The notes beneath the pieces are model-generated. The model saw only the letters and a list, made by a program, of their open reading frames with translations, was not told the origin of the DNA and did no database searches. A DNA stretch of 64,000 nucleotides from Prevotella sp. (GTDB lineage Bacteria; Bacteroidota; Bacteroidia; Bacteroidales; Dysgonomonadaceae). How positions within the stretch are numbered: position 1 is the stretch's first letter; each line of letters begins with the position of its first letter. This document shows, in pieces, positions 15,134-58,684 of this stretch. The stretch is from assembly GCA_031285625.1 (NCBI GenBank), contig JAITVV010000092.1:128001-192000 (forward strand). Reading direction: 5' to 3'. Both the position numbers and the translations under genes were made by a program.

Positions 15134-15148
15134 CGCAAATGAATTGCG
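15134..15148. promoter_or_regulatory. CGCA-N7-TGCG box upstream of the cbrC-like/WYL operon
   Basis: CGCAAATGAATTGCG; TATTTTTG on the minus strand at 15107-15114. Confidence 0.55.
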
Positions 15149-15186
15149 TTATATTTTAATATTCTGTAATAGGCTTGCAAAAAAAT

Positions 15187-15216
15187 AAAAAGGGTATCCA
15201 GTCGGATACCCTTTTT
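15187..15216. terminator. Intrinsic terminator with bidirectional form
   Basis: AAAAAGGGTATCC-agtc-GGATACCCTTTTT. Confidence 0.8.
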
Positions 15217-15236
15217 GAACAACTTATTAAATAACC

Positions 15237-16490
15237 TTATTTAATAGTAACTTTAATCGTGTTAGCTACAGTCGGTATAGGGAAAGTATTATCGACTTTC
15301 TTTATCACAGCATCTTCAACTTGTGATGTACCCCCAAATAAAGACTGACCATTACCGGCACCCGGATACTGGCTAACAGCTGTACCATCATCGAACAGTA
15401 CTGTCTTACTGGTTAAGTCTCCTTTATAGCTAGCCAAAATCGATTCCTCATTAGCATAGAACCAGTCGTTACCATATCCAAACATCGTAACATATGCAAT
15501 CTTATCTCCATCCCATGCCTTGAATTTAACTTCAGCACTTTTTCCCGGGTTAATCGGTTCTGAATTAGCTACGAATAAATATCTTACATTAGACATTCCC
15601 GAAAGAGCGGATTTCAGTTTAGATTCGTCTCCATTTTGAGCAAGTTCTTTAAGACCAATATTAGCATCTTTCTTATCAAGTTGATAAATTGGATTAACAT
15701 CACCTGTATAAACAACTACCAAAACAGGAGAAAGAGTGGTAATAATACCAGTCATCTCACTAACCATATCTCCTAATGGTTGATTATTTCCATTTTCAGC
15801 AAGTGCTGTAAGTTGGGCAGATGATTTTTCGTCTCCTTTGAAGAATGGCTCTCTTTTGACATATTCACCTCCCAACATATTAGACACAACCCATACTCCA
15901 GAAGATAGTGGAGTTTCATTAATTGTACCATTACTGTTATTTTTGATAGTAAGCGTAAATTCTGAAGTAACAGCATCGTAAGTTAAGTTTAGCTTTACAA
16001 GATCTGATGCCGGACGATATAAATTGCCTTGAGCATCCTGCGTCTCTACTTTCTTTATCGTACCATCTTCAGGATCGCCAGGATGAGCGATACCAGATCC
16101 CGGTTGTTTATTTATTCTGGTACCATTGTCCCATAAATGAATTTGTGATGACACATCTCCAGTACGGGCTTTTCCGTCTCCATCAAATAATTCTACTCCC
16201 GGATTTTCAGGTGCAAAAAATAAATCATTGGAGTAACCATACATTGTAGCAAACATCAGACGTTGCCCTTTTCCAGCATGAAATTTGATATCTACCGAGT
16301 TACCCGGAAGTATACCGTCAAATTTACCACTTTGGACAAACTCTTTAAGAACCACTTTATTCTCAAATGTAATAGTGGATTCCAAATCATAATAATCATC
16401 AGCATCGTCATCATCGCTACAAGAGCTGAACGACAAACCAGTAATTAATAGCACTGTTAAAAATGCAATTGATAAAAATTTCTTTTTCAT
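15237..16490 (-). CDS. Spondin_N-domain lipoprotein
   Basis: Lipobox FSSC; two FATMYGYSNDLFFA / VTMFGYGNDWFYA repeats; WDNGT. Confidence 0.75.
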   Translation of the reverse strand: MKKKFLSIAFLTVLLITGLSFSSCSDDDDADDYYDLESTITFENKVVLKEFVQSGKFDGILPGNSVDIKFHAGKGQRLMFATMYGYSNDLFFAPENPGVELFDGDGKARTGDVSSQIHLWDNGTRINKQPGSGIAHPGDPEDGTIKKVETQDAQGNLYRPASDLVKLNLTYDAVTSEFTLTIKNNSNGTINETPLSSGVWVVSNMLGGEYVKREPFFKGDEKSSAQLTALAENGNNQPLGDMVSEMTGIITTLSPVLVVVYTGDVNPIYQLDKKDANIGLKELAQNGDESKLKSALSGMSNVRYLFVANSEPINPGKSAEVKFKAWDGDKIAYVTMFGYGNDWFYANEESILASYKGDLTSKTVLFDDGTAVSQYPGAGNGQSLFGGTSQVEDAVIKKVDNTFPIPTVANTIKVTIK

Positions 16491-16904
16491 AAGATCTTAA
16501 TTTTTTTTGTGAAATGTATTAAATGGACATTTATTCATACCCTATATAACAAGTGCTATTTTTCAAAAGTTGAGTGATTTTATAGCAAAAAGTGACAAAT
16601 TAACGTTCAATAAGTAATTTTAGAATTAAAACTCGATTTTTTCTTAAAAAACTCATCATTCATAACATATTTTTAAATCAATTTAACACCAATAGAAATT
16701 TACATTAAAGGCTTTTCGAATGATAGATTTGATTTGGCTAAAAAATCTTTATATCTTTGTTCATATTATTTATAACTGTTTATAATTGATGTCATGTAAT
16801 TGTTTAGGATACATACCGGGAGCCTTCCCGGAGATTGGAGACCGCAAGCTGTAACTTGTAGGTCTTAGCTATTGTATTCTATATTCATTAAAAACAATTA
16901 CATA

Positions 16905-17603
16905 ATGTTATCACAAAAATATGGTCGCACATACCATTTTCCGTTTTCGCCCGGAACTACAAGCGACGACCGAATCAATCATACATACTGGGATGATATC
17001 CAACAGATAAAAACCCTTATTCATACAGAGAAACTGGATGGCGAAAATAACTGTCTTAATCAGTTCGGGGTATTTGCACGTTCGCATGCAGCACCTACAA
17101 CCTCAGCCTGGACAACCCAGCTGCGTGAACGGTGGGAGCTGATAAAACGCGACTTAGGAGAAATCGAACTTTTTGGAGAAAATCTGTATGCAGTGCATTC
17201 TATTGAATATAAACAGATAGAATCCTACTATTACATATTTGCAGTCCGTTGTCTCGATAAATGGTTATCATGGGAAGAGGTAAAATTCTATGCTGCAATG
17301 TTTGATCTTCCTACTGTACCCGAAATTGCAGCTCATTCAGTAAACAATCTCACAAAAGATAGTCTGGAGAAGCAGATTATAGCATTGGCTAATGAACCCA
17401 GCATATTTGGCTCTATTGACACTCAGACTGAAGAAGATTGTACACGGGAAGGCATTGTTACACGAAACGCAGAGGAATATGCAGCAAAAGATTTTGCCCA
17501 CAATGTATTCAAATATGTAAGAAAAGGACATGTAAAAACAGGAGAGCATTGGACCCGTAACTGGAAACGGGCTCAGCTTATTTGGGAAAGGGGAAAAATA
17601 TGA
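16905..17603 (+). CDS. ATP-dependent RNA ligase (Rnl2-like nucleotidyltransferase)
   Basis: Motif I TEKLDGEN, motif III LFGEN, motif IV REGIV, motif V FKYV; start set at MLSQKY. Confidence 0.85.
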   Translation: MLSQKYGRTYHFPFSPGTTSDDRINHTYWDDIQQIKTLIHTEKLDGENNCLNQFGVFARSHAAPTTSAWTTQLRERWELIKRDLGEIELFGENLYAVHSIEYKQIESYYYIFAVRCLDKWLSWEEVKFYAAMFDLPTVPEIAAHSVNNLTKDSLEKQIIALANEPSIFGSIDTQTEEDCTREGIVTRNAEEYAAKDFAHNVFKYVRKGHVKTGEHWTRNWKRAQLIWERGKI

Positions 17604-17681
17604 AGAATGATACACGAATAAACGGAATTATATCCCCCCAAAATTATCTAATATAAAGATCGTAAACTATAAGTCATAAAA

Positions 17682-17733
17682 GAAAAAGTAACAATAAAAA
17701 ACAAGTAAAATAGTGTCACCTTTGTCACTTTTT
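17682..17733 (-). repeat. ~50-bp dispersed GTGACA/GTAACA repeat, copy 1 (others at 33743, 38408, 58163, 61674)
   Basis: AAAAGTGACAAA(A/G)GT(A/G)ACA-N~21-TGTTACTTT, recurring five times in intergenic DNA. Confidence 0.7.
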
Positions 17734-22038: not shown

Positions 22039-22073
22039 CGCAAAAAAACTGCGCAATCACTATATTATATTTG
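22039..22073 (+). promoter_or_regulatory. CGCA-N7-TGCG box plus -7 element upstream of the Hen1 operon
   Basis: CGCAAAAAAACTGCG at 22039-22053; TATATTTG at 22066-22073. Confidence 0.7.
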
Positions 22074-22101: not shown

Positions 22102-23412
22102 ATGATCTTAAAAATTAGAAGCAAAAACGATTATTTGCTTGATATTCTTTTCAAGAACCCGAACACAGACTATGGATTGTATTTCAAGACTTTAAAGAAT
22201 GGTCAGATAGTAGGAAATGCGGTTAACAAACATTACTATGAGGTAGTTTTTCAGGATACTAAATACAGTTATCTGCCTGAAGAAAGCAACCAGATAGACT
22301 ATCAAAGCTATTGCACACCATTATCTGTATTGCACATATGCAATGAGCTTTTTACACATATACTAAAAAGTAAAGACGAGTTTTCTCAAAAACCAATTAC
22401 GTGGCTTGACATTACACAAGGTAAAGCCGATACAGAAAATTGTATAATTGAAATACCTTCTTTTTATATTGACTCCAACTGGTTTCGAAACGAACGTTTT
22501 CTACCTTCAAAGTATTTTGATGGGGTAAAGGTCGAACAACAAACAAACCGCATCTTTAAGTTGACAATTACTGCAAAATCTGTTTTTGAAGCATTCAATT
22601 TACTGGCTTTGGTCGCATTGTTTACTCATGTTACAAATGAATATAGAATACATACTTATATAGATGATCAATTGGCCCAGAAATATGGACGAATATTGAC
22701 CAATATTGAAAATGTTCCATATTTTGTTTTCTACCTGTTCATTATGAAGGCTGTGAAATCCGAAAGTCAGTTTAAGGAACTGAAACCTTTATTCGAGAAA
22801 TATCTTGAAGGAAACGGATTGATAGCTAATCTGGTATTAAAAGGTACATACCTGCAGCGTATTCATTATATAGTTAATCAGCTAGAACTGGATATACCAA
22901 TTCTGGATATTGGATGTGGAGAATTCACCTACTATAAAAAGATGATGGCTAAGGAATTTAAAGCACCATATTATGCTGTAGATCAAGATAGCCAATTTGA
23001 ACGATTGAGTGAGAATATTGCACGAAGGTATGAGGAAGACAATCTGATATTCTACAATTCATTAGAACAGTTTACATCTGACGAACAGGTAAATATTCTT
23101 TTGACCGAAGTTATTGAGCATAATCCAAGGGAAGAAGCCGATATATTGATAAAGAAGGCTTTATCATTTAATTTCAACAAATTATTAATTACCACCCCAA
23201 ATGTGGAGTTCAATCAATTTTACAATATGGAGAGTGAGTTTCGCCACGACGATCATCAGTTTGAACTTACCCAAAAAGAATTTGAAGAACTAATAGAGAG
23301 TTGTATCTGGAACATGGAAAATCCGGAACAATATAAAGTAGCGTTTTTTCAATTAGGTGATAGTCTAAATGACATTCAGCCAACACAAGGATGTGTAATC
23401 AGAAAACAATAA
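22102..23412 (+). CDS. hen1: Hen1-type RNA 3'-terminal 2'-O-methyltransferase
   Basis: ILDIGCGE (SAM), EVIEH, ITTPNVEFN and FRHDDHQFE Hen1 metal-binding motifs; N-terminal KNP motif. Confidence 0.85.
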   Translation: MILKIRSKNDYLLDILFKNPNTDYGLYFKTLKNGQIVGNAVNKHYYEVVFQDTKYSYLPEESNQIDYQSYCTPLSVLHICNELFTHILKSKDEFSQKPITWLDITQGKADTENCIIEIPSFYIDSNWFRNERFLPSKYFDGVKVEQQTNRIFKLTITAKSVFEAFNLLALVALFTHVTNEYRIHTYIDDQLAQKYGRILTNIENVPYFVFYLFIMKAVKSESQFKELKPLFEKYLEGNGLIANLVLKGTYLQRIHYIVNQLELDIPILDIGCGEFTYYKKMMAKEFKAPYYAVDQDSQFERLSENIARRYEEDNLIFYNSLEQFTSDEQVNILLTEVIEHNPREEADILIKKALSFNFNKLLITTPNVEFNQFYNMESEFRHDDHQFELTQKEFEELIESCIWNMENPEQYKVAFFQLGDSLNDIQPTQGCVIRKQ

Positions 23413-23441
23413 TCAGTTAATAGTTATCAAACGATATAATT

Positions 23442-24626
23442 ATGGAAGATTTAAAACGATTAAAAAATAGAATTGACTGGTTTTGTGAAAACAAAGTGAA
23501 TGCTTTTTCACCTACCATATCACCGGCTCCAAAATCGATTGAACGAAACGAGATAGAGAGTATATATGAAGGTATCCGTTACTTCTTTGAAAATGGAGTA
23601 CAGGAGATAGTGATACAAAAGAAATATATGGGCTCTTACTGTGATATATATTTAAATAAGAATCTGGAAGATACCTATTTCGTTAGCCGAAACGGGCATA
23701 AAATAGATCATATTGACTTGATTGCAGCAGTAGAAGCCTGTAGAGAATTGCACAGCCGTATCGACTGGACTGATACTGACATGCTCATTATCCAATCGGA
23801 ACTTATGCCTTGGAGTGCTTTAGGTAAAGGACTGATTGAAAATGAATTTGAAGGCTATCTGAATGTACACCAAAACCACTGCAACCATCTGACTCAATCG
23901 GATATATATGAGAAAATCTCAAAAGTAAAGGCTTCTCAACCTTACATAGACTTTATTGAGGATAAGAACAAACTTTCTCTCAAGGAATTGAGAGAAAGGT
24001 ATCCTCATCATATTATCCGCCAGTATGAATCTGTAGCCGATTTTAATATACTGGATATGGAAGTGTATAAAACAAGTATCGATATATACGAAAAACAGAT
24101 CAATCATTTTGGCAAAAAAGATTCTATACACTTCAAGCCGTTCAATATTCTGAAAAAAGTATTTAAAGACGGCTCTGAACTGATAGTGAACGACAACCTA
24201 AGTTATAGAGAAGTAAATAATGATGAATGTCTGAACTTGTACATACGCAACGAAGAGGAATTTAACCAGTCAGTAGAAGAGATATACAAGTGGTTTGTAA
24301 CCCTGGAGCAAAATATGGAAGAAGGTATTGTAATCAAACCCCGTCAGGCGTTTATCAGAAATATGCCTCCTGCATTCAAAGTAAGAAACAATAAGTATCT
24401 TACAATGATATACGGAGTAAATTTTCATGAACAATATGATTACTATCTTTATAAACGTAAGATCGACCGTAAACTGGAATGCTCCATTAATGACTGGATG
24501 ATCAATTGGGAGTTGCTGAAAGTGAAATACAAAGATATCAGCAAAGAAAACTACCTGTTGAAGAACCTTGTTTTCGACCGCATTATGGGAGAGAGGGTTG
24601 AAGCTGGATTGGATATGAGATTATAA
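23442..24626 (+). CDS. Stand-alone Pnkp-type RNA ligase (Rnl)
   Basis: FSPTISPA, QKKYMGS (motif I), SRNG, ELMPWS, EEGIVIKP, KVRNNKYLTMIYG, C-terminal LDMRL. Confidence 0.85.
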   Translation: MEDLKRLKNRIDWFCENKVNAFSPTISPAPKSIERNEIESIYEGIRYFFENGVQEIVIQKKYMGSYCDIYLNKNLEDTYFVSRNGHKIDHIDLIAAVEACRELHSRIDWTDTDMLIIQSELMPWSALGKGLIENEFEGYLNVHQNHCNHLTQSDIYEKISKVKASQPYIDFIEDKNKLSLKELRERYPHHIIRQYESVADFNILDMEVYKTSIDIYEKQINHFGKKDSIHFKPFNILKKVFKDGSELIVNDNLSYREVNNDECLNLYIRNEEEFNQSVEEIYKWFVTLEQNMEEGIVIKPRQAFIRNMPPAFKVRNNKYLTMIYGVNFHEQYDYYLYKRKIDRKLECSINDWMINWELLKVKYKDISKENYLLKNLVFDRIMGERVEAGLDMRL

Positions 24627-24783
24627 GAATGAACTTGTACAAATTGCTGGGTATGTCTGAATATTTTTATGGAGATTCTATTGAAATAGATATTATAAAA
24701 ACAGACAAAACGAAAACAAGATTTTTGAATTAATCTTTACATACTTTATAAGCAAAAATTAAGTAAGACATAAGTATATAACA

Positions 24784-25698
24784 ATGAAAAAAAACTCCAA
24801 AATATTAATATTAATCGGTGCTCCCGGATCGGGTAAATCCACTTTCGCAAAGTATTTTATCCGCACCGAAGAAAATTGGATGCGTCTTTGCCGTGATGAT
24901 TTTCGCATGATGCATTTTACATATGCTAATTTATCTCCACGCGATGAAGGTTTGATTACCGACATGCTGGATGTATCTATAGAAGCATTACTAAAGAAAA
25001 GATGTAATGTGCTGATAGATGCTACTCACTGCAGAGCAGAATATCTGAACCACTATATAGAAAAATTTAACCATCTGGCAGATATATCTTTCAAAGTATT
25101 TGAAGCCGATGCCGAAGAAATAGCCGAACGCTGTGATAAACGTAATAAGGAAACGGGCAAATATATTCCGGCGAATGTGCAAAAACGCTATATAAAAGAA
25201 CTGGAAGAGTTGAAAAAGACATTTGATCTCTCAACCCGTCCTAAGATTGATAAAAGAGTAAAAATAGCAGAGCAGAATACAACCCTACCTAAAGCTGTTA
25301 TTTGTGACCTTGACGGAACGCTTGCCCTTATGGATGATCGTAATCCATTTGATGCATCCCATAGTGATAAAGATGAATTAAATAAACCGGTAGCAAATAC
25401 ATTAAAAGCTTTAGCGAAAGATGGTTACCAGATACTTTTGGTTTCAGGTAGGGAAGATAAGTTCAGAGAACCGACTAAGCGTTTTCTTGAAATCCATAAC
25501 ATTCCTTATCATCAACTTTGGATGCGCCAAAGCAAGGATTATAGAAAAGATTCGATAATAAAAAAAGAAATATTCGACGCTGAAATAAAGGATAAATATT
25601 ATATCGATTTAGTACTTGACGACAGAGACCAGGTGGTAGAAATGTGGCGTAAAGAGTTAAAGTTAAATTGCTTTCAGGTGAATTATGGGAATTTTTAA
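24784..25698 (+). CDS. T4 PNK-like polynucleotide 5'-kinase/3'-phosphatase (Pnkp1)
   Basis: GAPGSGKST and RDDFR kinase motifs; DLDGT, SGR and DDR HAD phosphatase motifs. Confidence 0.9.
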   Translation: MKKNSKILILIGAPGSGKSTFAKYFIRTEENWMRLCRDDFRMMHFTYANLSPRDEGLITDMLDVSIEALLKKRCNVLIDATHCRAEYLNHYIEKFNHLADISFKVFEADAEEIAERCDKRNKETGKYIPANVQKRYIKELEELKKTFDLSTRPKIDKRVKIAEQNTTLPKAVICDLDGTLALMDDRNPFDASHSDKDELNKPVANTLKALAKDGYQILLVSGREDKFREPTKRFLEIHNIPYHQLWMRQSKDYRKDSIIKKEIFDAEIKDKYYIDLVLDDRDQVVEMWRKELKLNCFQVNYGNF

Positions 25699-27223: not shown

Positions 27224-29980
27224 CTATCTCCATTTGTTCACTTGTTCCGATGTATTATCATCCGTAAAATTTGCCGAAAGGGCTTTCATTCTGGCCTCTA
27301 ACAGTTGTTTTCTACCTTCAATTGTACGTGTATAAATAAGGTCGCATGGACCAACAAGTTCGAGCCATTGCTGAGAGAAATATTGAGCAAGTTTTTTATT
27401 CCTACCCAAGATCTCAGGTACTGCATGGTAGTCGCGCCGGATTTGTTCTGCAAAGAATTTACTTTTACGTACGATTATATAACGTGGATTTTCAATGACA
27501 TTAACAATTTCTTGCAATGTATCGATAAATACAGCTTGCTCAAAAGTACTTCCTCCATCGAGATAACAATAAATGGCTCCAGCTTCATCAGAATATGCAA
27601 TAACCTTTAGGTTTGCAGGATTAGTAATTATTGTGCCTTGCTTGATTAATGACTTGAGCAACACATTTCCTATTTGTTGAATATCTTTAGAAATATCCCT
27701 GAATTTTATATATAGTTTTAGTGTCTTATAAGTTTGCCTGCCACACATAAATAATCCTGTAAGGGCAGTAAGAAGAATAAAGAAATAGAAATCTTTTGGG
27801 GTTCGCAATGCCTTTATATTGTGTATCAATGATTCAAGAGTCTGAGAAGCAAAAGCTGTAAGTAACAATAGAAGATCGGCTCCAAGATACTTTATCGTCC
27901 GCATCATGTATAGTTGTTTTAGCTTTGGGTATTCGCCCCCTTTTTCGCTATAGAACGGGATCTTTATCTCCTCTACAATTTGTACCCCTCCGGCAATAGC
28001 TTTTGCCCATCTTTCATTTAGGGTGCATCGGTCTCCGGCATTCGTTAATGTAACAAGATTAATTCCTCTGATTGTTTCCTCATTGTATGAATCCCTATGT
28101 ATATTAAGGCGTTGCAATCCATTTTCAATTGTCGGTTCCTCATAGTTTGATAATCCGACAAAGCTTCGAAAACGTCTTCTCATTACTTCCAGGTCGCTAC
28201 CTCCATCTTCCATTGTAGGATCGAGGCAGACAAGATGCCATATATTACTTGTTTTGGATGGATTATCTTTTTGTGTTCTTATTGCACGTCCCCGCATTTG
28301 ATTGGAAAGTACAAAAGATCCTACAAAACTAGCTAAAATCAGACTATTGATTGCCGGAGCATCCCATCCTTCTCCCAACAGGGATTTAGTACCGATAAGA
28401 ATCTCGATCTCCCCTTCCTGAAATAGTTGTGTTATGATTTGTACCAGTTTATTTTTAAGAGTTGCATTTGATTTGATAATCCTGTATCCATCTATATACT
28501 CATATGTGAGCGGATCCAGTTCTGTCATGCCGTGTATGATGCATAATTCATGGAAACGACTAATTGCATCAATAGGTATGATTGTTATTGAACCTGTGAG
28601 TACTCCGAGTTTTTTATTATCATTGTTATATTTACGTAGATGTTCGAATATGGGAATCACCCCAATCTTGCTTAACTCAATGTCTACATTGTCTTTATTG
28701 AGGCATTCACTTCGTATATAATCTGACAAAATAACCATGCGCAAATCAGATTGTAAATGGCTATGTTCAAAATCAACAATCTCTTTTATGCTATTCATCT
28801 TTCCATTACTGGAAATAAGAAGCTTATTGATGCGCTGATTATAAAGCATGTTCACTCTGTTGCGTTCGAGTACTCCATATCGTCTTAATTGATTCATCAA
28901 GGCTTCCTTTTCTTCTTCAAACTCTTCAAAGAGTTCTTTCTCCTGAAAAAGAAAGAAGTTAAGTAATATTTCAATACGTTCATAGAGCAATTCTGGAATA
29001 TCTACTTTGGGTATATCATTTCCCTCATATCCACTTACTATTCTTAAGTGGATAACGGGAATCTCGATATTATTTGCATGCAGGAATATAATACATGATG
29101 TGTATATAGGTAAATTATCATAAATCCAGTCCAGATACTTTTCCGGCTCATTCCATGCAGGGATACTTGCCATTGCATTAATCAAAGTCTCCGAATGGGA
29201 TAGCTTCTGATAAAGATCATTCATGTCTTTTCGAAACTTATTTATCTTTCGGTATTCTTCTTCAGTAGGCATTGAAAAGTAAATATGATCCTGATGAGGG
29301 CACAGATCGCCTTCGATAATTAGTTCCGGAATGGAAATTTCTGTGTCGATACTACCATTCAGGTCGAGGTAGCGTCTCCATTCAGTATAGCTGACATCAT
29401 AGGGTGGAGTGGCCGTAAGACCAACGACAAAGGGATCTAATTGTTCTTTAACCTTTATGAGAGTATGCCACCATTCATTCATCAGATGATGTGCTTCATC
29501 AACAACAATTGTCCCTATTCCTACACTTTTTAGTCCTTTAACGATAGATACCAGAGTGGATTTATTATGAGCTTTGGCTTTGATCGGTTTAGGTTCAGAA
29601 TTTTCATCTTCCGGTTCTTCATCTTCTGCTTGTATTTGTCCGCTACATGATGAGTGTAAGCCTTGATACGTCACTACAGTTATGAATGCAGGCTTGCGGA
29701 TATCGGTTGATATCCATTCGGGAGTGATATGTGTATCTAAGAATAGTTCACAAAAACGTTGTATCCATTGGTTCCGGATGGTTAAAGACGGGGCTAGTAT
29801 TAAAGTCGCTTTATTGATGCGTATTGCTACTTCTAGTCCTAATACTGTTTTACCTGATCCTGGAGGTGCGATAACATGCAAATGCCTGTCTTCCATATGG
29901 AAGTCTAATTCATCCAATACTTTTTGTTGGTATTTTCTCCAGGGATATTTAAATTTTGTATTGGATGGAAAGGTTTTCAT
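27224..29980 (-). CDS. SF2 DEAD/DEAH-box (ResIII-like) helicase with C-terminal TM segments
   Basis: PPGSGKT, DEAHH, GLTATP, LGEGWD and QMRGRAIR motifs; two hydrophobic helices near the C-terminus. Confidence 0.85.
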   Translation of the reverse strand: MKTFPSNTKFKYPWRKYQQKVLDELDFHMEDRHLHVIAPPGSGKTVLGLEVAIRINKATLILAPSLTIRNQWIQRFCELFLDTHITPEWISTDIRKPAFITVVTYQGLHSSCSGQIQAEDEEPEDENSEPKPIKAKAHNKSTLVSIVKGLKSVGIGTIVVDEAHHLMNEWWHTLIKVKEQLDPFVVGLTATPPYDVSYTEWRRYLDLNGSIDTEISIPELIIEGDLCPHQDHIYFSMPTEEEYRKINKFRKDMNDLYQKLSHSETLINAMASIPAWNEPEKYLDWIYDNLPIYTSCIIFLHANNIEIPVIHLRIVSGYEGNDIPKVDIPELLYERIEILLNFFLFQEKELFEEFEEEKEALMNQLRRYGVLERNRVNMLYNQRINKLLISSNGKMNSIKEIVDFEHSHLQSDLRMVILSDYIRSECLNKDNVDIELSKIGVIPIFEHLRKYNNDNKKLGVLTGSITIIPIDAISRFHELCIIHGMTELDPLTYEYIDGYRIIKSNATLKNKLVQIITQLFQEGEIEILIGTKSLLGEGWDAPAINSLILASFVGSFVLSNQMRGRAIRTQKDNPSKTSNIWHLVCLDPTMEDGGSDLEVMRRRFRSFVGLSNYEEPTIENGLQRLNIHRDSYNEETIRGINLVTLTNAGDRCTLNERWAKAIAGGVQIVEEIKIPFYSEKGGEYPKLKQLYMMRTIKYLGADLLLLLTAFASQTLESLIHNIKALRTPKDFYFFILLTALTGLFMCGRQTYKTLKLYIKFRDISKDIQQIGNVLLKSLIKQGTIITNPANLKVIAYSDEAGAIYCYLDGGSTFEQAVFIDTLQEIVNVIENPRYIIVRKSKFFAEQIRRDYHAVPEILGRNKKLAQYFSQQWLELVGPCDLIYTRTIEGRKQLLEARMKALSANFTDDNTSEQVNKWR

Positions 29981-30398
29981 TTGTATTGTTTGAGTAATAA
30001 ATCACAAAGATAATTGAAAAAAGGAATAACTCCTTGTTATCCCTTTAGTCTCTATCTTTTAAAATTCTCCATCCTGGTTGGGAATACATTACTTCCATTA
30101 TGAAAAGCAAAGGGGATTCTATACTCAGCAACTGGGTTATCAACGTAAAGGGATGAATAAACGTTTCCGGGAACGTTTTAATCATGAAGAAACCTTTATA
30201 TTTACCAGGAAGGATAATTTTGATTATGCCTATAAGTGTGTCAATTATTATTGGCATGATGACACAAAAGAAGATGTTGATTTACGTAAAAATTCAAACA
30301 TGATTTTATAGATAAATATATTGAAGGTGCAAGTTTTATGATGCCGGACTATTAAGTGTCTGATAAATTATTGTACTTTTAAAAGAAATTATAATCAT

Positions 30399-32012: not shown

Positions 32013-33527
32013 TTATAGTTCTATTTTTCTTACTTCGTCCAAAGCGTTCCCACCATTATCTATAGCCGATATGATGTCAAATATTTTATCGGACCAACCA
32101 GCTATCAAATACACATCGTTCTGAGTGATATCCAATGGAGTGTTTCCATAACCGGACAAGTCGAACAGATATAGCTTACTGCTTGGTGATATCTTTTTAT
32201 ATTCATTCCATAGATCAGCTATTTTCTTGTCATTTTTGTTGTTCCACAATTGCAAATCAGTAAACATCATGACTTTATCCATCTGTTGTTTTCTCTTTAT
32301 CAGGTCTTCTATTACCAGATAACCGTTGGTTGCATAGCCTACTTCTCCTTCGCGGCGATAGAAAGCATCCACATTAGACAATATACCTTGTGTAGGTACA
32401 TTTATCACCTTCCACTTATCACCGAACATCCCGGTTATGGCATTTTCGCAGCGTGACTTCAATAGCATAGCCAGCATCAAACCTATATCATAACACAGTA
32501 TTTTACTTTTAGCAGATACCGGACGTTGCATAGAGCCTGATACGTCACATGCTATCAGTACACTGGTGTCAGCATCAAAACCTTTTATATTTTCAGCAGA
32601 TACAGCTACGGCTTTTTCCAATGCATCCAGTACACGGCTTGCATATGCAGACTTCACTTTAGATATTTCACGATACGCAGCCAGAAAACGGAATGGCAAT
32701 TGTTTTGAACGACGTACAGCTTCCGGTGAAGCCAACGCACTGCATACTTTTATGATATGCTCTTTCGAAACATTCGATTCCAGTATATTACGCAAGTTAC
32801 GCATCAATGCCATATAGCCTATTTTACCACTATCTATCAGTTCTTCCCATTTGATGCGGAATGCAGTTCCCTTTTCAGCTTCGGAATCAAATTTTATTTG
32901 ACCCAATGCAGAAAGTTCTGTTTCCCAAGTATATGGTGTTTCCAATGTATCATTTACTATCTTGTTGAACAAAGCCTGTTGGTCTTCATCCTTTGCCTTA
33001 GGGTGTACAAGAAATAGTGCATCACGAAGTTTTATTTCCGCATCACGATTATATTTTGCAAACTGATATTCATCAAACCGGTTGAATGCATTCTGCAATC
33101 CGGCTTGTAGCTGTTTCGACAGACGATTTAGTTTCTTTGTGTCTTGTCTTTCATTAGCAAGCTGGTAGTAGGCCAACAGTTCTGTTATCTCATCTGCACG
33201 CTGCACCACTTGCAATACCATTTTGCTTACAGTAGAGTCTCCTCTGTGTATTTTAGCCAACTCTACAGCCAATACCAATGGAATTGAACGCAGATTCATC
33301 TTCTGGCGTGTATATACAGCCAGCTGTGCTACAAATATCGGGTCACATCGTTTTATCAAACCACGCATTGTTTCAACTCGGGCTTGCGCGCTTTCGTAAA
33401 ACTTGTCACTCAATGCAGAGGTAACGGCAGCAGTATACAATTGCCACTCTGGTGATAGACGGTATGCTTGTGCTCCTTCATAATTTACCACCTTGTTTTT
33501 TCCTTTGTTTCTGAAATTGAATTTCAT
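32013..33527 (-). CDS. rsr: Ro60/TROVE-domain RNA-binding protein with vWA domain
   Basis: VNYEG, FYES, RADE, KYNR, TWETELS, MALMRNLRN, SKQLPFRFLAAY; MIDAS DVSGSM. Confidence 0.93.
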   Translation of the reverse strand: MKFNFRNKGKNKVVNYEGAQAYRLSPEWQLYTAAVTSALSDKFYESAQARVETMRGLIKRCDPIFVAQLAVYTRQKMNLRSIPLVLAVELAKIHRGDSTVSKMVLQVVQRADEITELLAYYQLANERQDTKKLNRLSKQLQAGLQNAFNRFDEYQFAKYNRDAEIKLRDALFLVHPKAKDEDQQALFNKIVNDTLETPYTWETELSALGQIKFDSEAEKGTAFRIKWEELIDSGKIGYMALMRNLRNILESNVSKEHIIKVCSALASPEAVRRSKQLPFRFLAAYREISKVKSAYASRVLDALEKAVAVSAENIKGFDADTSVLIACDVSGSMQRPVSAKSKILCYDIGLMLAMLLKSRCENAITGMFGDKWKVINVPTQGILSNVDAFYRREGEVGYATNGYLVIEDLIKRKQQMDKVMMFTDLQLWNNKNDKKIADLWNEYKKISPSSKLYLFDLSGYGNTPLDITQNDVYLIAGWSDKIFDIISAIDNGGNALDEVRKIEL

Positions 33528-33581: not shown

Positions 33582-33616
33582 CAAAGATTCAAAAACAAGT
33601 ACGCAGCTTTTTTGCG
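33582..33616 (-). promoter_or_regulatory. CGCA-N7-TGCG box and -7-like element upstream of rsr
   Basis: TACGCAGCTTTTTTGCGTA at 33600-33618; AATCTTTG on the minus strand at 33582-33589. Confidence 0.7.
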
Positions 33617-33904
33617 TAACAAAAACTTTCTTTTAAAACTTCTCATTTTTAACAATTATCATAAAAAAGTAACAAGTTACATCGATCTCCAATATTCAAT
33701 TAATTATTTGATTATTAAATATATGATTCTAACATCAAGCATAAAAAGTGACAAAAGTAACAGGTTTTGCCCATTTTTTATTGTAACCTTATTCTTTTAT
33801 CGATATGCTGACCTAATAAGATAAAGTTTTTAAACAATCTCAAATCTGGTAATTTCATACTGATTATAAAAATAATAAGTGTATTTTTGGCTAAAATTTA
33901 ACAA

Positions 33905-34816
33905 ATGTTTGAAAAGAAAATCAGTACGGCAATAGGCCGGTATTTCCCATTATTTATAGGATGGAGCCGATATATATTATATAAACATCCCGACTGGCTG
34001 CTTCGAAAGGATATTCTTAAATATTATGATTCCGTATCTCCATCAGAAATAAATGAAGAACAAGCGGAAGCAGTTTCTTACATTCGTAAAAAAGGGGCGC
34101 ATTATTTTCCCTATTCGTTTATTGAAAAGTATAATCCGGAAAAAATAAAAGTATATACAAATGAAAAATGTGGATTAAAGTATGTATTACATAATGAGAA
34201 ACGGCTCTATTTTGCAAGAGAAACATCAGCTTTTAATATTCAGAGGATATATACCAACCTTTTGTACGAGCAGGATCGTAAATCTGCACATTGCTACCAG
34301 ACTGAGACTTTTAGGATAGAAGAAGGAGACATCCTGTTTGATGTAGGTGCTGCAGAAGGTATATTTTCGTTAACAGTGATTGAGAAGGTAAAGAAAGTCT
34401 ATCTCTTCGAAGTAGAGGAGCGCTGGCTGGAAGCATTACGCGAAACTTTCAAGCCATGGCAGGATAAAGTGGAGATTATCTGCAAATATGTATCTGATAC
34501 GGATAGTGAGCAAACTGCCAAACTGGATACTGTTATAAAAAAGCTTAGTAATGAATCTTTATTTCTTAAACTGGATGTGGAAGGAGCCGAAAAATTAGTT
34601 ATCAAAGGAGCAAACGAGATATTAACTTCAGGAAATAATAAAATTAAAGCTGCCGTATGTACCTACCACAATCAAGATGATCATGAAGAACTATCGGCTA
34701 TCATGAAGGATTTAGGATATAGGGTAAGTACATCTCCCGGCTACATGCTTTTTAAGCAACAAAATCTGGCTCCGCCTTATCTGAGAAGGGGTTTAATTTA
34801 TTGTAGTAAAGAATAA
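33905..34816 (+). CDS. FkbM-family SAM methyltransferase
   Basis: FDVGAAEG, LKLDVEGAE and VCTYH motifs. Confidence 0.85.
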   Translation: MFEKKISTAIGRYFPLFIGWSRYILYKHPDWLLRKDILKYYDSVSPSEINEEQAEAVSYIRKKGAHYFPYSFIEKYNPEKIKVYTNEKCGLKYVLHNEKRLYFARETSAFNIQRIYTNLLYEQDRKSAHCYQTETFRIEEGDILFDVGAAEGIFSLTVIEKVKKVYLFEVEERWLEALRETFKPWQDKVEIICKYVSDTDSEQTAKLDTVIKKLSNESLFLKLDVEGAEKLVIKGANEILTSGNNKIKAAVCTYHNQDDHEELSAIMKDLGYRVSTSPGYMLFKQQNLAPPYLRRGLIYCSKE

Positions 34817-34845
34817 TCTTTACATTATCAGAGAAATAATAGAAG

Positions 34846-35904
34846 ATGACAATACAAGAAATAAAGGACAAAGGGCTATTACTATTTGAATGCATAAGTG
34901 GCAGTAAGGCATATGGTCTGGATACACCAACTTCTGATACAGACCTGAAAGGAGTATTTTATCTACCGAAAGACCAATTCTTCGGACTGGACTATATTAC
35001 TCAGATAAATAATGAGACCAACGATGAAGTATATTATGAGTTGGGGCGGTTTGTAGAATTGCTTTGTAAAAACAATCCTAACATACTCGAAATACTAGCT
35101 TCCCCTGAAGACCGTATATTATACAAGCATCCTATTATGGATAGCTTAAATATCGAACTGTTCTTATCCAAACTCTGTAAGGAAACTTTTGCGGGTTATG
35201 CTCATTCACAAATCAAAAAGGCCAGAGGCTACAAAAAGAAGATCGTAAACCCGATGGAAAAAGAGCGGAAGGATGTGCCCGACTTCTGTTATATTCTCGA
35301 AGGATATTCTTCTGTTCCGGTAAAAGAGTGGCTACAGGCGAAAGATTACCTTCAGGAAAGATGCGGACTGAGTTCTATACCTCATACTAAAGGAATGTAC
35401 GCCTTGTTTTATGACGAAGATGATAAATTCAGATATAAAGGAATAGTACATAATCCCGACGCCAATGAAGTTGCTTTATCTTCTATACAAAAAGGAGAGA
35501 AAGAAGTCGCCTATCTGTATTTTAATGTTGAAGCTTATTCTTTGTATTGTAAAGAGTACAAAGAATACTGGGATTGGGTTGCCAATCGCAATGAAATACG
35601 CTATCAGGGTAATCAGCAACATGGAAAAAATTATGATGCAAAGAACATCATGCACACTATCCGGCTGTTGCAGGTTGCCGAAGAAATATTGCGTGATGGG
35701 AAGCTAAATGTAAAGAGGCCTAATCGAGAACAATTGCTGAATATAAAAGCTGGAATGATGGAATATGATGAACTCTTGGTAATGGCGGACGACCTGATGC
35801 ACAGGATAGAGCAATATGTCGGTAAAAGCCACCTGCAAGATATTCCTGATAAGAATAAAATAGAGGAAATATTGATCGGGATGAGAGTGAAATTATATAA
35901 ATAG
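34846..35904 (+). CDS. Pol-beta-superfamily nucleotidyltransferase (RlaP/YcgL-like, RNA-repair associated)
   Basis: SGSKAYGLDTPTSDTDLKGV, NNPNILE, YDAKNIMHTIRLL. Confidence 0.85.
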   Translation: MTIQEIKDKGLLLFECISGSKAYGLDTPTSDTDLKGVFYLPKDQFFGLDYITQINNETNDEVYYELGRFVELLCKNNPNILEILASPEDRILYKHPIMDSLNIELFLSKLCKETFAGYAHSQIKKARGYKKKIVNPMEKERKDVPDFCYILEGYSSVPVKEWLQAKDYLQERCGLSSIPHTKGMYALFYDEDDKFRYKGIVHNPDANEVALSSIQKGEKEVAYLYFNVEAYSLYCKEYKEYWDWVANRNEIRYQGNQQHGKNYDAKNIMHTIRLLQVAEEILRDGKLNVKRPNREQLLNIKAGMMEYDELLVMADDLMHRIEQYVGKSHLQDIPDKNKIEEILIGMRVKLYK

Positions 35905-36339: not shown

Positions 36340-36463
36340 TCAGGGTAATAAGGCGAAAAGGCTGATATAAACCGGCGCTTTACTTTAAGCTACGAAATCG
36401 ATAGGTCTTGCACCTATATAATCCGGATCCCAAATCGAAGAAATCCTCTTCTACGACACCTGA
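36340..36463 (-). ncRNA. Y-RNA-like unit 5 of array; degenerate permuted tRNA
   Basis: GUGUCGUAG 5' arm; T-arm AUAGG-UGCAAGA-CCUAU, short CGA/UCG acceptor-like hairpin, D-arm UAGCUUAAAGUAAAGC, CCGG/CCGG stem. Confidence 0.7.
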
Positions 36464-36473
36464 AATTATAAAA

Positions 36474-36611
36474 AACAGAAGTAACAAGCGAAAAGAGCGA
36501 GCGGGGCATGGCTTGCCGGAGTCGAACCGGATAGTCTCGCCGGATTTACGACCTCACTATTCCTCCCCTAAAATTGGTAGCCGAAGTATCTCTCTTCTAC
36601 GACATTCTGTT
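36474..36611 (-). ncRNA. Y-RNA-like unit 4 of array; T-arm plus an unrecognised stem module
   Basis: AACAGAA/UUCUGUU stem, AUGUCGUAG, GAUACUUCG; CCGG-UUCGACU-CCGG T-arm; AUAGU/ACUAU and GGGG/CCCC stems. Confidence 0.7.
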
Positions 36612-36621
36612 ATATTTAATC

Positions 36622-36745
36622 AACAAGGCAACAAACGAACAGAGACTATAATAGCTTGCTCTACCCACTGAGCTACACCCGAAGATGACAGGAATCGAAC
36701 CCGTGACCCAGTTAACCGAAGTAACTCTATTCTACGGCACTTGTT
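36622..36745 (-). ncRNA. yrlA: YrlA-type Y RNA (unit 3): circularly permuted tRNA mimic
   Basis: GUGCCGUAG arm, then GGUC-ACGGG-UUCGAUU-CCUGU (T-arm), CAUC-UUCG-GGUG (closed acceptor), UAGCUCAGUGGGUAGAGCA (D-arm). Confidence 0.85.
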
Positions 36746-36763
36746 TGTACTAATTCACAAATA

Positions 36764-36880
36764 AACAAGGTAACAAGCATAAAGAGCAAACTTTGTCCAA
36801 CCTCGGACGTTGCGGGAGTCGAACCCTTTTCATTAATTGGCGTTTAGCAAACGAAGTAACTCTTTACTACGACACTTGTT
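36764..36880 (-). ncRNA. Y-RNA-like unit 2 of array; T-loop hairpin plus two other hairpins
   Basis: AACAAGUGUCGUAGUAAAGAG/CUCUUUAUGCUUGUUACCUUGUU stem; GGG-UUCGACU-CCC; GUCCGA-GG-UUGGAC; CGUUU-GCU-AAACG. Confidence 0.7.
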
Positions 36881-36888
36881 ATATTATT

Positions 36889-37030
36889 TAAACAAGGCAA
36901 CAAACGAGAAAAGCCTTTTTGATCTGGTGTCCTATTTTACTAGACGACTACAACTTACATTGCTGGCTGTTTTTTCAACAGCGTTTCCAGAGTGGATTAC
37001 GAAGTATCTCTTCCCTACGGCACTTGTTTA
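36889..37030 (-). ncRNA. Y-RNA-like unit 1 of array; degenerate permuted tRNA
   Basis: GUGCCGUAG arm; CUGG/CCAG stem, GCUGU-UGAAAAA-ACAGC (T-arm geometry), CAGC/GUUG, UCGUCUAGUAAAAUAGGACA (D-arm-like). Confidence 0.7.
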
Positions 37031-37062
37031 TTTATTTCAATGATCTTTTCTTATTTATACTG

Positions 37063-37096
37063 CAAAGTAATAACCTTGATGTGCAATCTTTTTGCG
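37063..37096 (-). promoter_or_regulatory. Promoter of the Y-RNA array with a variant CGCA-N7-TGCG box
   Basis: TGCAATCTTTTTGCG at 37082-37096; TTACTTTG on the minus strand at 37063-37070. Confidence 0.6.
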
Positions 37097-38303: not shown

Positions 38304-38571
38304 TGGTTATATATTAATTATTTATTTGCAATGTATTTTACTTGTCTATCAAAAAGTAACATTAACACAAAACATCTACTCATCTAATAATCAGGCAATA
38401 TACTATTAAAAGTGACAAAAGTAACACTTTTTTGTATGTTTTTATATTGTTACTTTATTGCTAGATAACACGCTTGTTATCTGTATTATATAGACAATAT
38501 TGAAAATATAAAGTAACAGCTTTATTGGTAAAGAGATCCTTCGTTCCTCTGGATGACAAAATCTTCATTAC

Positions 38572-49646: not shown

Positions 49647-49652
49647 TTCTTA

Positions 49653-54495: not shown

Positions 54496-54512
54496 AATGT
54501 TATTGTTTTAGA

Positions 54513-57500: not shown

Positions 57501-57581
57501 AACAGTCTGGCTGCCTGCAAACGGAATTGCAAGAATCATAATCAGTGTTATTAAAGTCAATTTCAATAAGCTTTGTTTCAT
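54513..57581 (-). CDS. SusC/RagA TonB-dependent transporter
   Basis: VVVIGYG, PLYVVDG, ILKDGASAAIYG, NGVVLITTK, FPSVSAGW, C-terminal aromatic residue. Confidence 0.95.
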   Translation of the reverse strand: MKQSLLKLTLITLIMILAIPFAGSQTVAQTRNLTGTVVDNTGEPIIGATVVIEGTTQGTLTLDDGTFTLENVSSSQKIKVSLLGFSPQLISVGNQTSLHIILEEDTKMLDDVVVIGYGVQKKSDVTGAITSVKGDALGSRSVENVQQALQGKAAGVQVMGGSSAPGTSPAVRIRGISSNSSGNSEPLYVVDGLKVKDIAYLDPNNIKSMEILKDGASAAIYGVEAGNGVVLITTKSGTKGESKIFYDFNYGITSLARKPKMMNAQQYVDYNKAAGNSLVNDWDGVTDTDWSEALYGDNGSFQRHTVGFEGGNDNGTLYSSVSYMKNDGMYYGDKDYINRLSFQLNATYNIKPWLEFSSNNSIENSEYSRVGDGINKQGFNSAYYYDPLTPLFYDKDNLPQYMKDLITSKGDDMLMKNENGDYAAVPKYNADNTNPMTWYYSQNSKHKDFNIRGVTSLNFKPIKGFVFTTRLGYRLGSEDYKYYGVPVYFSISPRSKLSYEAETATERFYEWENFANYNKTFNKHNVYAMAGMSYSSNWRNYTRGTTDEFINGAPNFHYLDYSSSGANDGVGGSVGKSKKMSYFGRIGYAYDNRYMIQANFRADAFDNSKLSKDNRWGYFPSVSAGWTVSNEKFMENISPKTLSFLKVRASYGVNGNVNVLSGYRWSSSLNLPGYYPIGGSLVNTISPSNTLTNPMLNWEESKQIDAGIDARFLNDRLTLTVDYYNKNTTGQLVKITPPLSTGTTEMWKNVGKVNNAGFEFDLGWQDKIDDFSYSVSANLATLHNKVTKLDEVQKPIEDGYSNGFVYFYKGQPVWSYYGYEYLGPDPDTGKALYKDQTGEGEINESDKVFLGSAIPKFYYGLTISAAYKGFDFTAFGSGSSGGKMVVSMRGSATANQLAEFWTDSWDVKGPGAKYPHPNPTDDKFAKSSAQLMSGSYFKIKQLQLGYTIPASLTRKIEISRLRVFASLDNFFTFTKYPGMDPESVSVTPPNTKGTLSETGAMGMDYGDYPSPKTVTFGLNLSF

Positions 57582-58259
57582 AATCTTAAAAAAATTAATA
57601 ATTTATTGTTTAGTAGTTCATTGTATCCGGCGTCTATCACTCTCTCGTCAACCGGATGAGGTCGTAGTATGGATTTCTTAGTTACATTCATAAAGATTTA
57701 TTGGTTAGTATTAGGTGAATTATTTCATAGCATAAGATATTTTAGTGTTATCATCTTATGAACGACTTAGGATTAAAATACCACTAAAACATTTTTCAAT
57801 TTCGTGAAAATAAGGGCTTAAAGAATTAAAAGGCCGGCTGATTAAATAAATAATCAATCGACCTGTATTTTAGAAGTTAATCTTACAATAACTTATTCTA
57901 TTTTAGCTTTTTGTAAAACTCTGTAAGTTTATCAACTGAATGATGCATCTTTGGATATAAAAGAGATCAGCTTAACAGTAAGACCCTCAAGAGCAGCAGC
58001 CTCTATTTTATGATGACCATCCAACAAACAGTTGGCAAATCCCCAATGTGATACAATTCCATCTTTAGGAGTTGTAAAACTTAGTCTCGATTGTGATTTT
58101 CTGACTTCGAGATGTTTGTGATCTATATTACTTTCCATATTCAATCTTATTTACCATACATTAAAAAAGTGACAAAAGTAACAACTTATACATATATTTT
58201 ATCTGTTACTTTTTCTTTCTGTCCCATTTATATTAGACAATCTTAATTATATATTCTTG

Positions 58260-58455
58260 TACTCCTAATGAGATTCGAACTCATATTCCCTTTCGGGCAG
58301 TACGGCTCTAAATACGCTTCCCTACTTTTCAGTTAAGAATTTCGGTGCATCTGTAAAATCTACCCATAACAACGCGCAGCTATTACGGGGCTATCCATAC
58401 ACTCTATGGTAAGTCTAAATTTTGCCACAGGCTTTTCCTTTTAAGCTATAGGAGC
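58260..58455 (-). ncRNA. tRNA-like RNA with a 117-nt structured insertion in the anticodon loop
   Basis: Acceptor GCUCCUA/UAGGAGU plus A, D-arm GCUU/AAGC, UGUGGC/GCCGUA stem, CCC-GAAA-GGG variable arm, T-arm AUGAG-UUCGAAU-CUCAU. Confidence 0.7.
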
Positions 58456-58462
58456 AAATTAT

Positions 58463-58613
58463 AAACGAGGTAACAGGCGAAAAGAGACTGTTTATCCTGC
58501 TCTACCACTGAGCTACACTCCCGTTAATTTGTATTACTGAGAGAGTGAGGGGACTCGAACCCCCGACCCGGGCATTAAAAGTGCGAAGTAACTCTAATCT
58601 ACGACACTCGTTT
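58463..58613 (-). ncRNA. yrlA: YrlA-type Y RNA: circularly permuted tRNA mimic
   Basis: AAACGAGUGUCGUAG...GUUACUUCG; GGGGG-UUCGAGU-CCCCU; CACUCUC/GGGAGUG closed acceptor; UAGCUCAGUGGUAGAGCA; CCUGUUACCUCGUUU. Confidence 0.85.
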
Positions 58614-58650
58614 TATGCTTTGTATATGAATGATCGCTTGTTTGATGATA

Positions 58651-58684
58651 CAAAGTAAAAGCACCGGAGCGCAGTGTTTTTGCG
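58651..58684 (-). promoter_or_regulatory. Promoter with CGCA-N7-TGCG box for the remote Y-RNA/tRNA-like pair
   Basis: CGCAGTGTTTTTGCG at 58670-58684; TTACTTTG on the minus strand at 58651-58658. Confidence 0.7.

Follow-up and report, generated by a model that had tools for sequence, protein, structure and literature searches.

A putative WYL-protein operator upstream of RNA-repair and Y-RNA genes in Dysgonomonas and other Bacteroidota

The WYL operon and the box-bearing units

To date, WYL regulators have been described in DNA-damage responses and in defence against phages. Here we analyse a 64-kb stretch of a Dysgonomonas genome (the window; positions 128001-192000 of contig C37 in a 96-contig, 4.84-Mb assembly that is 94% complete), in which a short box, CGCA-N7-TGCG, recurs upstream of an operon encoding a WYL protein, of RNA-repair genes, of the gene for a Ro60 ortholog and of Y RNAs. 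A preliminary description of this DNA had listed the box at five positions and had proposed that the WYL protein binds it and induces Ro60, Y RNAs and repair enzymes after damage. The gene identities given there were confirmed by Pfam and NCBIfam, and the link between regulator, operator and regulon (WYL protein, box and RNA-repair genes) is well supported by the sequence comparisons reported below.

The proposed box binder is a protein of 340 residues (13061..14083, minus strand) with a WYL domain (PF13280, E 1.1e-11, residues 155-222) and a WCX domain (PF25583, E 2.7e-12, residues 256-323). Pfam gave no helix-turn-helix (HTH) match for its N-terminus. An AlphaFold2 model (25 orthologs, mean predicted local distance difference test score 80.7) shows a winged helix (helices 5-19, 27-42 and 50-61 plus a hairpin at 71-81), a helical linker, the WYL domain and the WCX domain. 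In Foldseek, the protein aligns over its whole length with chains of DriD, the homodimeric activator of an SOS-independent response to DNA damage in Caulobacter crescentus, and it falls within the winged-HTH (wHTH)-WYL-WCX family to which DriD belongs. The activators DriD (8tp8, E 4.4e-15) and PafBC (1.1e-11) rank first, followed by the repressors BrxR (1.1e-7) and CapW (2e-6). By sequence, only DriD chains match, weakly and over the WYL-WCX part only (phmmer E 0.0016-0.0071).

The operon begins with a CbrC/UPF0167 gene (14503..15096, minus strand; PF03691, E 7e-61), which NCBIfam classes as colicin E2 tolerance CbrC (308 bits, cutoff 300). An open reading frame (ORF) of 121 codons (14086..14451, minus strand) separates cbrC from the WYL gene; for its product, Pfam and NCBIfam gave no match and PADLOC a single marginal one (E 0.00098). 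The operon promoter has a canonical -7 element, TATTTTTG (15107..15114, minus strand), 19 nt from a degenerate box with exact half-sites, CGCAATTCATTTGCG (15134..15148, minus strand), that reads toward cbrC.

Four further units of the window carry the box. Upstream of hen1, the exact box CGCAAAAAAACTGCG (22039..22053, plus strand) reads toward the gene and is followed after 12 nt by the -7 element TATATTTG (22066..22073, plus strand). Downstream, on the same strand, are hen1 (22102-23412, Pfam Hen1_N), a Pnkp ligase-domain gene (23442-24626, PNKP_ligase) and a Pnkp kinase-phosphatase gene (24784-25698, HAD_PNKP and AAA_33). The other three units are on the minus strand. The rsr gene (32013..33527), a Ro60 ortholog with TROVE (Pfam E 6.5e-31) and vWA domains, has an exact box at 33602..33616, 12 nt from the -7-like element AATCTTTG (33582..33589). 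A five-module array of YrlA-like, tRNA-mimic Y RNAs (36400..37055) has a box with TGCA/TGCG half-sites, hence one mismatch, at 37082..37096, 11 nt from the -7-like element TTACTTTG (37063..37070). The same -7-like element (58651..58658) stands 11 nt from an exact box (58670..58684) upstream of a remote single YrlA-like RNA (58470..58625).

The array was recognised by its CTACGRCA stem motif, with copies at 36451, 36597, 36732, 36867 and 37015, and by mutual alignment; all six modules, the remote copy included, align with one another and have in common the stem motif and segments like a T-arm, so they would work like YrlA. At the Rfam gathering threshold the window yields no Y RNA, and the matches to YrlA (RF02553, gathering 69) at 36633-36733 (35.2 bits, E 8e-6) and 58496-58571 (34.3 bits, E 1e-5) are sub-threshold, so that "YrlA-like" is used here as a working term for modules that score below Rfam membership. 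A sixth strong box lies on another contig (C91:50601-50625), where it is followed after 12 nt by TACCTTTG and precedes an ORF of 443 codons (L090:4053-5384) to which Pfam, NCBIfam and PADLOC assign no family and for which Atlas gave no usable match.

The division of Pnkp is a feature of its own: the ligase domain and the kinase-phosphatase are encoded by separate genes after hen1 (22102-25698), and in one relative (G016) a 5'-nucleotidase gene stands in place of the kinase-phosphatase.

Specificity of the box in the genome

Within the window, the exact pattern CGCA-N7-TGCG occurs four times (15134, 22039, 33602 and 58670) against 0.24 expected, and none of 100 shuffles reached four. Matches with one mismatch number 13 against 7.28 expected, a count reached by 4 of 100 shuffles; as a class they are not enriched. 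The whole genome has 18 exact matches, including the four of the window, and from their printed flanks most of the others apparently lie in coding sequence. A composite search for the box and a -7 element, allowing one mismatch, returned 14 matches against 13 in the reversed genome.

A sharper separation was obtained with a position weight matrix built from 96 sites, all of them outside this window, and scanned against the genome and its reversed copy. The five best matches are 37082 (30.4 bits), C91:50601 (29.9), 58670 (29.2), 22039 (28.7) and 33602 (28.3); the next real match scores 15.7 bits and the reversed-genome maximum is 18.0 bits. The 37082 site is, by this comparison, genuine despite its mismatch, because it is the best match in the genome to a matrix made of foreign sites. 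Its first-position T recurs in 8 of the 101 sites discussed in the next section. The occurrence of the box at the five positions of the preliminary description is confirmed.

Orientation of the box and promoter geometry

The usual spacing between -33 and -7 promoter elements is 19-21 nt. The primary sigma factor of Bacteroidota recognises TAnnTTTG near -7 and TTTG near -33 (PMC7366714). All four target sites of the window, read toward the downstream gene, have the form CGCAAAAAnnCTGCG and are followed by NNNNTTTG after 11 or 12 nt. Given what the sigma factor reads near -33, and given that the box ends 11-12 nt before the -7 element, the box on the target side would occupy the place of the -33 element. 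The earlier spacing values (11-12 nt to a -7-like element at four targets, 19 nt at the WYL operon, with the box near -33) were recomputed and are unchanged.

A set of 101 non-identical sites gave a 19-bp consensus, TR-CGCA-gTcTTTT-TGCG-YA, which in its oriented form reads TR-CGCAgTcTTTTT-GCG-YA. Because a T-rich spacer was among the criteria by which these sites were chosen, the T-rich part of the consensus is partly circular. Across the set, from Bacteroidales to Cytophagales, the half-sites are kept while the flanks diverge; divergent clades have the box variants TTATTGCG and TTGTTGCG, which the strict pattern defined below misses.

The two sides of the box differ. On the target side, NNNNTTTG follows at a gap of 11 nt in 60 sites and of 12 nt in 28 (88 of 101). 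Of 89 -7 elements there, only 20 start with TA, the other 69 being without the canonical TA; TTACTTTG, AATCTTTG and TTTCTTTG are the most frequent. On the WYL side, 44 of the 101 sites have a canonical TAnnTTTG, in most cases TATTTTTG, at a gap of 17-21 nt, and 29 have the 19-nt geometry found in this window. In the WYL-operon promoter itself, the TTTG within the box is 21 nt upstream of the -7 element, which is the -33 position. Since the geometry differs between the target side and the WYL side, the box, as these alignments describe it, is not a plain palindrome but an oriented element able to serve two divergent promoters differently. The half-sites and flanks are palindromic, and the spacer is asymmetric and oriented. 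The preliminary description had missed this orientation, the -33 TTTG of the WYL-operon promoter inside the box and the sixth site on the other contig.

Co-occurrence of box and regulator in Dysgonomonas

Forty-one genomes were searched, of which 25 are Dysgonomonas. A full-length WYL protein of at least 70% identity was counted as an ortholog, and the strict box was defined as CGCA[AG][CT]NTTTTTGCG. The ortholog is present in 14 of the 25 Dysgonomonas genomes. The strict box occurs in 13 of these 14 and in none of the 11 ortholog-less ones (0/11); it is also found in 2 of the 16 genomes of other families. In one of the 13 (G018) the strict match is inside coding sequence and probably fortuitous, and a high-scoring site lies beside RtcB. 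The ortholog-bearing genome that has no strict box (G021) has a 27.9-bit site upstream of RtcB. The loose pattern CGCANNNNTTTTGCG is found in 29 of the 41 genomes and therefore carries background.

The candidate targets follow the same distribution. Ro60 is encoded in seven genomes of the genus and Hen1 in four, all of them WYL-positive. The box upstream of Ro60 is in the same position in five relatives (G004, G007, G012, G022 and G024), with a one-mismatch variant in a sixth (G023, locus L089), and the box upstream of hen1 recurs in G016, G023, L114 and L119. RtcB offers an internal comparison: the paralog of about 435 residues has a site of at least 25 bits in 10 of 10 loci, all in ortholog-bearing genomes, and the paralog of about 470 residues has a box in 0 of 9. 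No box was found at RtcB in the two RtcB-bearing genomes that have no ortholog (G010 and G019), nor in the flanks of the RtcB of the present genome, which is of the 470-residue type (contig C29). A typical relative has one box between divergent units, with the WYL operon on one side and Ro60, RtcB, an RlaP pair or Hen1-Pnkp on the other, and some boxes are followed by gaps of 500-800 nt in which Y RNAs probably lie.

Together, this co-occurrence in the genus and the separation of five sites at 28.3-30.4 bits in the genome-wide scan support the proposed link between the WYL protein at 13061-14083 and the Ro60, Y-RNA and repair genes, as do the box in the regulator's own promoter, the boxes at the putative targets and a layout like that of DriD.

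In Dysgonomonas hofstadii (L072:4023-6097), a HEPN_LA2681 protein and a CPCC-Barstar fusion are further products of the RlaP operon that follows a box, which looks like a toxin-immunity-like pair within the putative regulon.

Box and regulator across Bacteroidota

A search with the WYL protein across the phylum returned 433 relatives, from which 80 loci were kept for box analysis; they span Bacteroidales (Bacteroides, Parabacteroides, Odoribacter, Butyricimonas, Tannerella), Cytophagales, Sphingobacteriales and others. A T-rich box lies within 6 kb of the WYL gene in 54 of the 80, and the T-run points toward the WYL gene in 86 of 88 listed sites. The target of each site was taken as the nearest gene on the far side, assigned by blastp against annotated genes. 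Of the 88 sites, 16 face Ro60, 15 RtcB (of two types), 6 RlaP, 2 Hen1 and 1 an RNA ligase; a 745-residue family and a 157-residue family account for 6 each and a 274-residue protein for 1. The target is unknown for 14, at least 5 of which are SPFH/Band_7 proteins, and 22 have no gene within 800 nt or face a contig end.

An independent sample of 151 genomes was searched with an ortholog threshold of E <=1e-99. Eighteen genomes have the ortholog, and the strict 15-mer occurs in 10 of them (15 matches); in 6 of the 16 ortholog-bearing genomes outside Dysgonomonas it lies 40-41 nt upstream of the WYL gene. This result is weaker than that of the locus set but consistent with it.

The Bacteroides xylanisolvens group is instructive in that the box at the WYL gene has been lost, with the recognition-helix residues that are invariant in the ortholog alignment retained. 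In B. xylanisolvens XB1A and B. congonensis, boxes of 34-36 bits stand elsewhere in the genome, upstream of the 745-residue family. Because these genomes keep boxes away from the WYL gene, the box, as far as sequence can tell, tracks the regulator even when unlinked.

Several features of the WYL operons themselves vary. The first genes are highly variable (L072, L074, L077, L080, L096, L102, L108 and L116) and encode CbrC, a Sel1-repeat protein, a ferredoxin-nitroreductase fusion, an alpha/beta hydrolase or unknown proteins of 96-298 residues; some genomes have two or three WYL paralogs, each with a different partner gene. In Pontibacter humidus (L170:6001-7758), a fusion protein of 585 residues carries, C-terminal to the regulator, a PhyH-type dioxygenase domain. 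Long forms of 527-573 residues also occur in three Bacteroidota metagenome-assembled genomes, including Aureispira (L161, L166 and L169); a scan of the L166 form gave no PhyH match.

A proposed mode of regulation and its alternatives

We propose, with a probability of about 60%, that the box is the operator of the regulator encoded at 13061-14083, which would activate RNA-repair targets in the manner of DriD, damp its own synthesis and sense nucleic-acid fragments. A dimer of the regulator would bind the 19-bp site. At least five units would be under its control, namely hen1 with the two pnkp genes, rsr, the five-gene Y-RNA array, the remote YrlA-like RNA and the 443-codon ORF on C91, in addition to its own cbrC-orf121-WYL operon. 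At the targets, the regulator would most likely be a DriD-like activator that helps RNA polymerase with the primary sigma factor onto a weak promoter. At its own promoter, where the -33 TTTG lies inside the box half-site, binding over this TTTG, 21 nt from the canonical TATTTTTG, would most likely damp synthesis of the regulator. For the WYL domain, the expected ligand is a nucleic-acid fragment arising from RNA or DNA damage. We favour activation over repression by roughly two to one, because the -7 elements are weak and conserved, the spacing is fixed, box-bearing targets were not found without the regulator and the fold is nearer to that of the activators.

A number of points weigh against this proposal. 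The 80 phylum loci were picked through the WYL gene, so the linkage of box and WYL gene among them is partly built in, and even so 26 of the 80 have no T-rich box within 6 kb. In the independent sample, only 10 of the 18 ortholog-bearing genomes have the strict 15-mer, and 26 of the 133 others have it too; in these 133 the 35 real matches compare with 25 for a reversed-pattern control, and the strict 15-mer is thus near background there. The site at 15134, in the WYL operon, scores 13.3 bits, within the null range, and is supported by its exact half-sites, its position and its retention at the same place in three Dysgonomonas relatives (L094, L084 and L085), not by its score. The contigs from four RNA runs that cover the window derive from related strains and have flat depth on both strands, which makes them uninformative, with neither transcript ends nor an expression level to be read from them. 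Promoters of the phylum do not in general need the -33 motif (PMC7366714), and its absence is a weak argument for activation. The homologous WYL proteins CapW and BrxR are repressors (PMC11662680). Finally, of the residues by which DriD contacts single-stranded DNA (ssDNA; PMC9186387), R176, R178 and R204 align with A181, T183 and M209 here, and Y168 and Y192 with the invariant Y173 and W198, in a weak HMMER alignment. As the DriD arginines have no arginine counterparts in this alignment, the ligand may differ from ssDNA.

An alternative that we regard as rather unlikely keeps the same regulator and operator and makes the protein a repressor of the CapW/BrxR type, bound over the -33 position of both promoters until ligand releases it and the repair genes and its own operon are derepressed. 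The family does include repressors that leave DNA on binding ssDNA (PMC11662680), and BrxR (Foldseek 1.1e-7) and CapW (2e-6) are among the structural matches; the fold is closer, however, to DriD and PafBC. The box overlaps core promoter space at both promoters, but overlap is all that a repressor needs, and the fixed 11-12 nt spacing is instead that of the fixed-distance rule described for DriD (PMC13004042). Targets might fire unaided if the -33 is dispensable, as noted above; yet with 69 of 89 target -7 elements without the canonical TA, they look like help-dependent promoters conserved phylum-wide. Moreover, genes under repression could persist without their repressor, whereas box-bearing targets occur in none of the 11 regulator-less Dysgonomonas genomes.

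It is improbable, in our view, that another factor binds the box and that the WYL gene is a mere member of the regulon. Candidates would be a co-transferred regulator, an alternative sigma factor for which the box would be a -35-like element, or the product of the gene that follows the WYL gene, an NrtR-like Nudix and winged-helix protein by Pfam (12100-12801, minus strand). The NrtR-like gene adjoins the WYL gene here and RtcB in one relative (G012), but it is found in only 5 of the 80 WYL loci and was rejected as the box binder for that reason. A gene for an extracytoplasmic function (ECF) sigma factor lies near one site (L164), but the palindromic half-sites and flanks (TR-CGCA...TGCG-YA) suit a dimeric HTH protein and not a sigma factor. 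Although the tie between box and WYL protein comes from sequence comparison, the box layout equals that of the DriD operator (PMC10853764), the WYL gene is the sole regulator gene consistently beside the box, and boxes track it even where unlinked. That the palindromes arose by chance, or belong to a promoter cassette that was copied passively and has no regulator of its own, is hardly credible: the unenriched one-mismatch class, the composite search and the near-control rate of the strict 15-mer in ortholog-less genomes would fit it, but four exact matches stand against 0.24 expected, five matches lie at least 10 bits above any control match, orientation and spacing are strict, half-sites are conserved from Bacteroidales to Cytophagales while flanks diverge, and these differing flanks also argue against recent copies of one mobile element.

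Other features of the locus

Further genes were identified by Pfam and NCBIfam: an RNA ligase (start at 16872, plus strand), an HD-kinase (17814) and RlaP (34846), the last as part of an FkbM-RlaP pair (33905-35904). No canonically spaced box was found at the FkbM-RlaP pair or at the RNA ligase. Between the promoter and the start codon of the ligase gene is a leader of about 90 nt with stem-loops (16780-16871, plus strand), which is also present at L084:3355-3480 and L094:4725-4850. This conserved leader, common to several Dysgonomonas species, may be a cis-regulatory RNA. The gene at 27270-30098, for a ResIII/DEAD helicase of 918 residues, is a presence/absence polymorphism within the RNA-repair island, as it is skipped, with a joint of 2827 nt, in contigs of two runs with related strains.

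Just downstream of the remote YrlA-like RNA, a tRNA-like gene (58228-58462, minus strand) has acceptor, D-arm and T-arm segments that an insert of about 150 nt splits; neither ARAGORN nor Rfam called it, and its fold z-score is only -1.35. A dispersed intergenic repeat, AAAAAGTGACAAAAGTAACA, usually followed some 20-30 nt on by the inverted TGTTACTTTT, occurs five times in the window (17714-17730, 33746-33762, 38410-38426, 58167-58183 and 61677-61693) against 0.01 expected, and 139 times in the genome. These copies are also places where contigs from other strains end or branch, and the repeat may be a terminator-like element or one resembling repetitive extragenic palindromic (REP) sequences.

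Implications

Our search of the full-text literature turned up neither a WYL-controlled RNA-repair regulon nor this operator, and no description of how Ro60, Y RNAs, RtcB or Hen1-Pnkp are switched on outside Proteobacteria. Burroughs and Aravind reportedly linked WYL domains to RNA-repair contexts in 2016 and may already have noted WYL genes next to those for RNA repair. Their work is cited for such a link in PMC7824862.

With an operator of 19 bp, one named protein as regulator and a few listed target promoters, the RNA-repair genes of Bacteroidota would have a common and directly testable switch. This bears on whether activation in the DriD mode can work with the unusual sigma factor of the phylum, and it would provide a handle on the expression of commensal Ro60, a protein that review articles connect with autoimmunity. 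The window contributes to this picture a case from Dysgonomonas in which the putative regulon is dispersed and the Y RNAs form units of their own.

Taken jointly, the observations allow a wider reading that we put forward only tentatively: a phylum-wide RNA-damage response in which a DriD-like WYL activator has an RNA-cleavage product as its ligand and is combined with interchangeable input or immunity modules. If this were true, the ligand would be RNA ends or tRNA fragments and not ssDNA, and the regulator, with a sensor unrelated to that of RtcR, would be its functional counterpart. The interchangeable modules would then be the WYL paralogs and the variable genes at the head of the WYL operons, and they would couple colicin-like, contact-dependent or phage nuclease attacks to one set of repair genes that includes commensal Ro60, which has been linked with lupus autoimmunity.

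Comparison with known systems

By content, a close known system is the rsr-yrlBA-rtcBA operon of Salmonella Typhimurium, which is governed by one nucleic-acid-sensing regulator, RtcR (PMC7790460). Both systems would place Ro60, YrlA-type Y RNAs, RNA ligase and repair enzymes under one regulator, co-regulation being predicted in the case described here. RtcR is a CARF-containing, sigma-54 enhancer-binding protein that serves a single operon; in contrast, the present system would use a WYL factor and primary-sigma promoters, its units are dispersed, and its Y RNAs would be transcribed separately. The preliminary description had stated that Salmonella uses RtcR instead, in agreement with PMC7790460, and the RtcR domain (PF06956) has no match in this 94%-complete genome, with E. 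coli as a positive control.

CapW and BrxR are wHTH-WYL-WCX repressors of adjacent CBASS and BREX operons, and CapW senses ssDNA (PMC11662680), a ligand also bound by DriD (PMC9186387) and PafBC (PMC11804915). They share with the present protein the family and a palindromic operator in the promoter adjoining the regulator gene. They are structurally more distant from it (Foldseek E 1e-7 to 8e-6), and a multi-locus regulon with fixed promoter spacing is not described for them in the text consulted.

PafBC, an actinobacterial WYL activator that works by sigma adaptation, binds just upstream of -10 at promoters without a -35 element and is triggered by ssDNA (PMC11804915, PMC13004042); the heterodimer needs RNA polymerase to hold its site (PMC13004042). 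The WYL-WCX architecture is common to both (Foldseek E 1.1e-11). Unlike PafBC, which is a heterodimer with a different regulon, the present regulator is predicted to be a homodimer, because there is a single gene and the site is palindromic.

With DriD the present protein shares the order of domains, and DriD ranks first among its structural matches (Foldseek E 4.4e-15 across some 350 columns). The DriD operator, CGxC-N7-GxCG with an AT-rich gap (PMC10853764), and the box described here both span 15 bp, with GC-rich half-sites of 4 bp, CG outermost, on either side of an AT-rich gap of 7 nt; here this gap is T-rich in the 101-site consensus. In cryo-electron microscopy complexes, the DriD site overlaps the -35 position and its distance from -10 is constant, in promoters without a -35 (PMC13004042); here too, the site covers the position of the upstream promoter element with a fixed spacing to the downstream one, in promoters without the upstream element. 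One DriD site is in a bidirectional promoter that includes driD (PMC10853764, PMC13004042), and a site in the regulator's own promoter is likewise found here (54 of 80 loci; degenerate in this window). There are differences as well. The protein is not an ortholog of DriD (16-21% identity), the phosphate-binding arginines of DriD are not evidently retained, the half-site is CGCA where that of DriD is CGAC, the spacer is asymmetric and oriented, and the promoters belong to the Bacteroidota sigma-ABfr class (-7/-33). DriD has recA, didA and bapE in its regulon, and the putative regulon here has Ro60, Y RNAs, RtcB, Hen1-Pnkp and RlaP. Thus, the comparison supports a system that would work like DriD without being its ortholog, and that would govern the repair of RNA instead of DNA.

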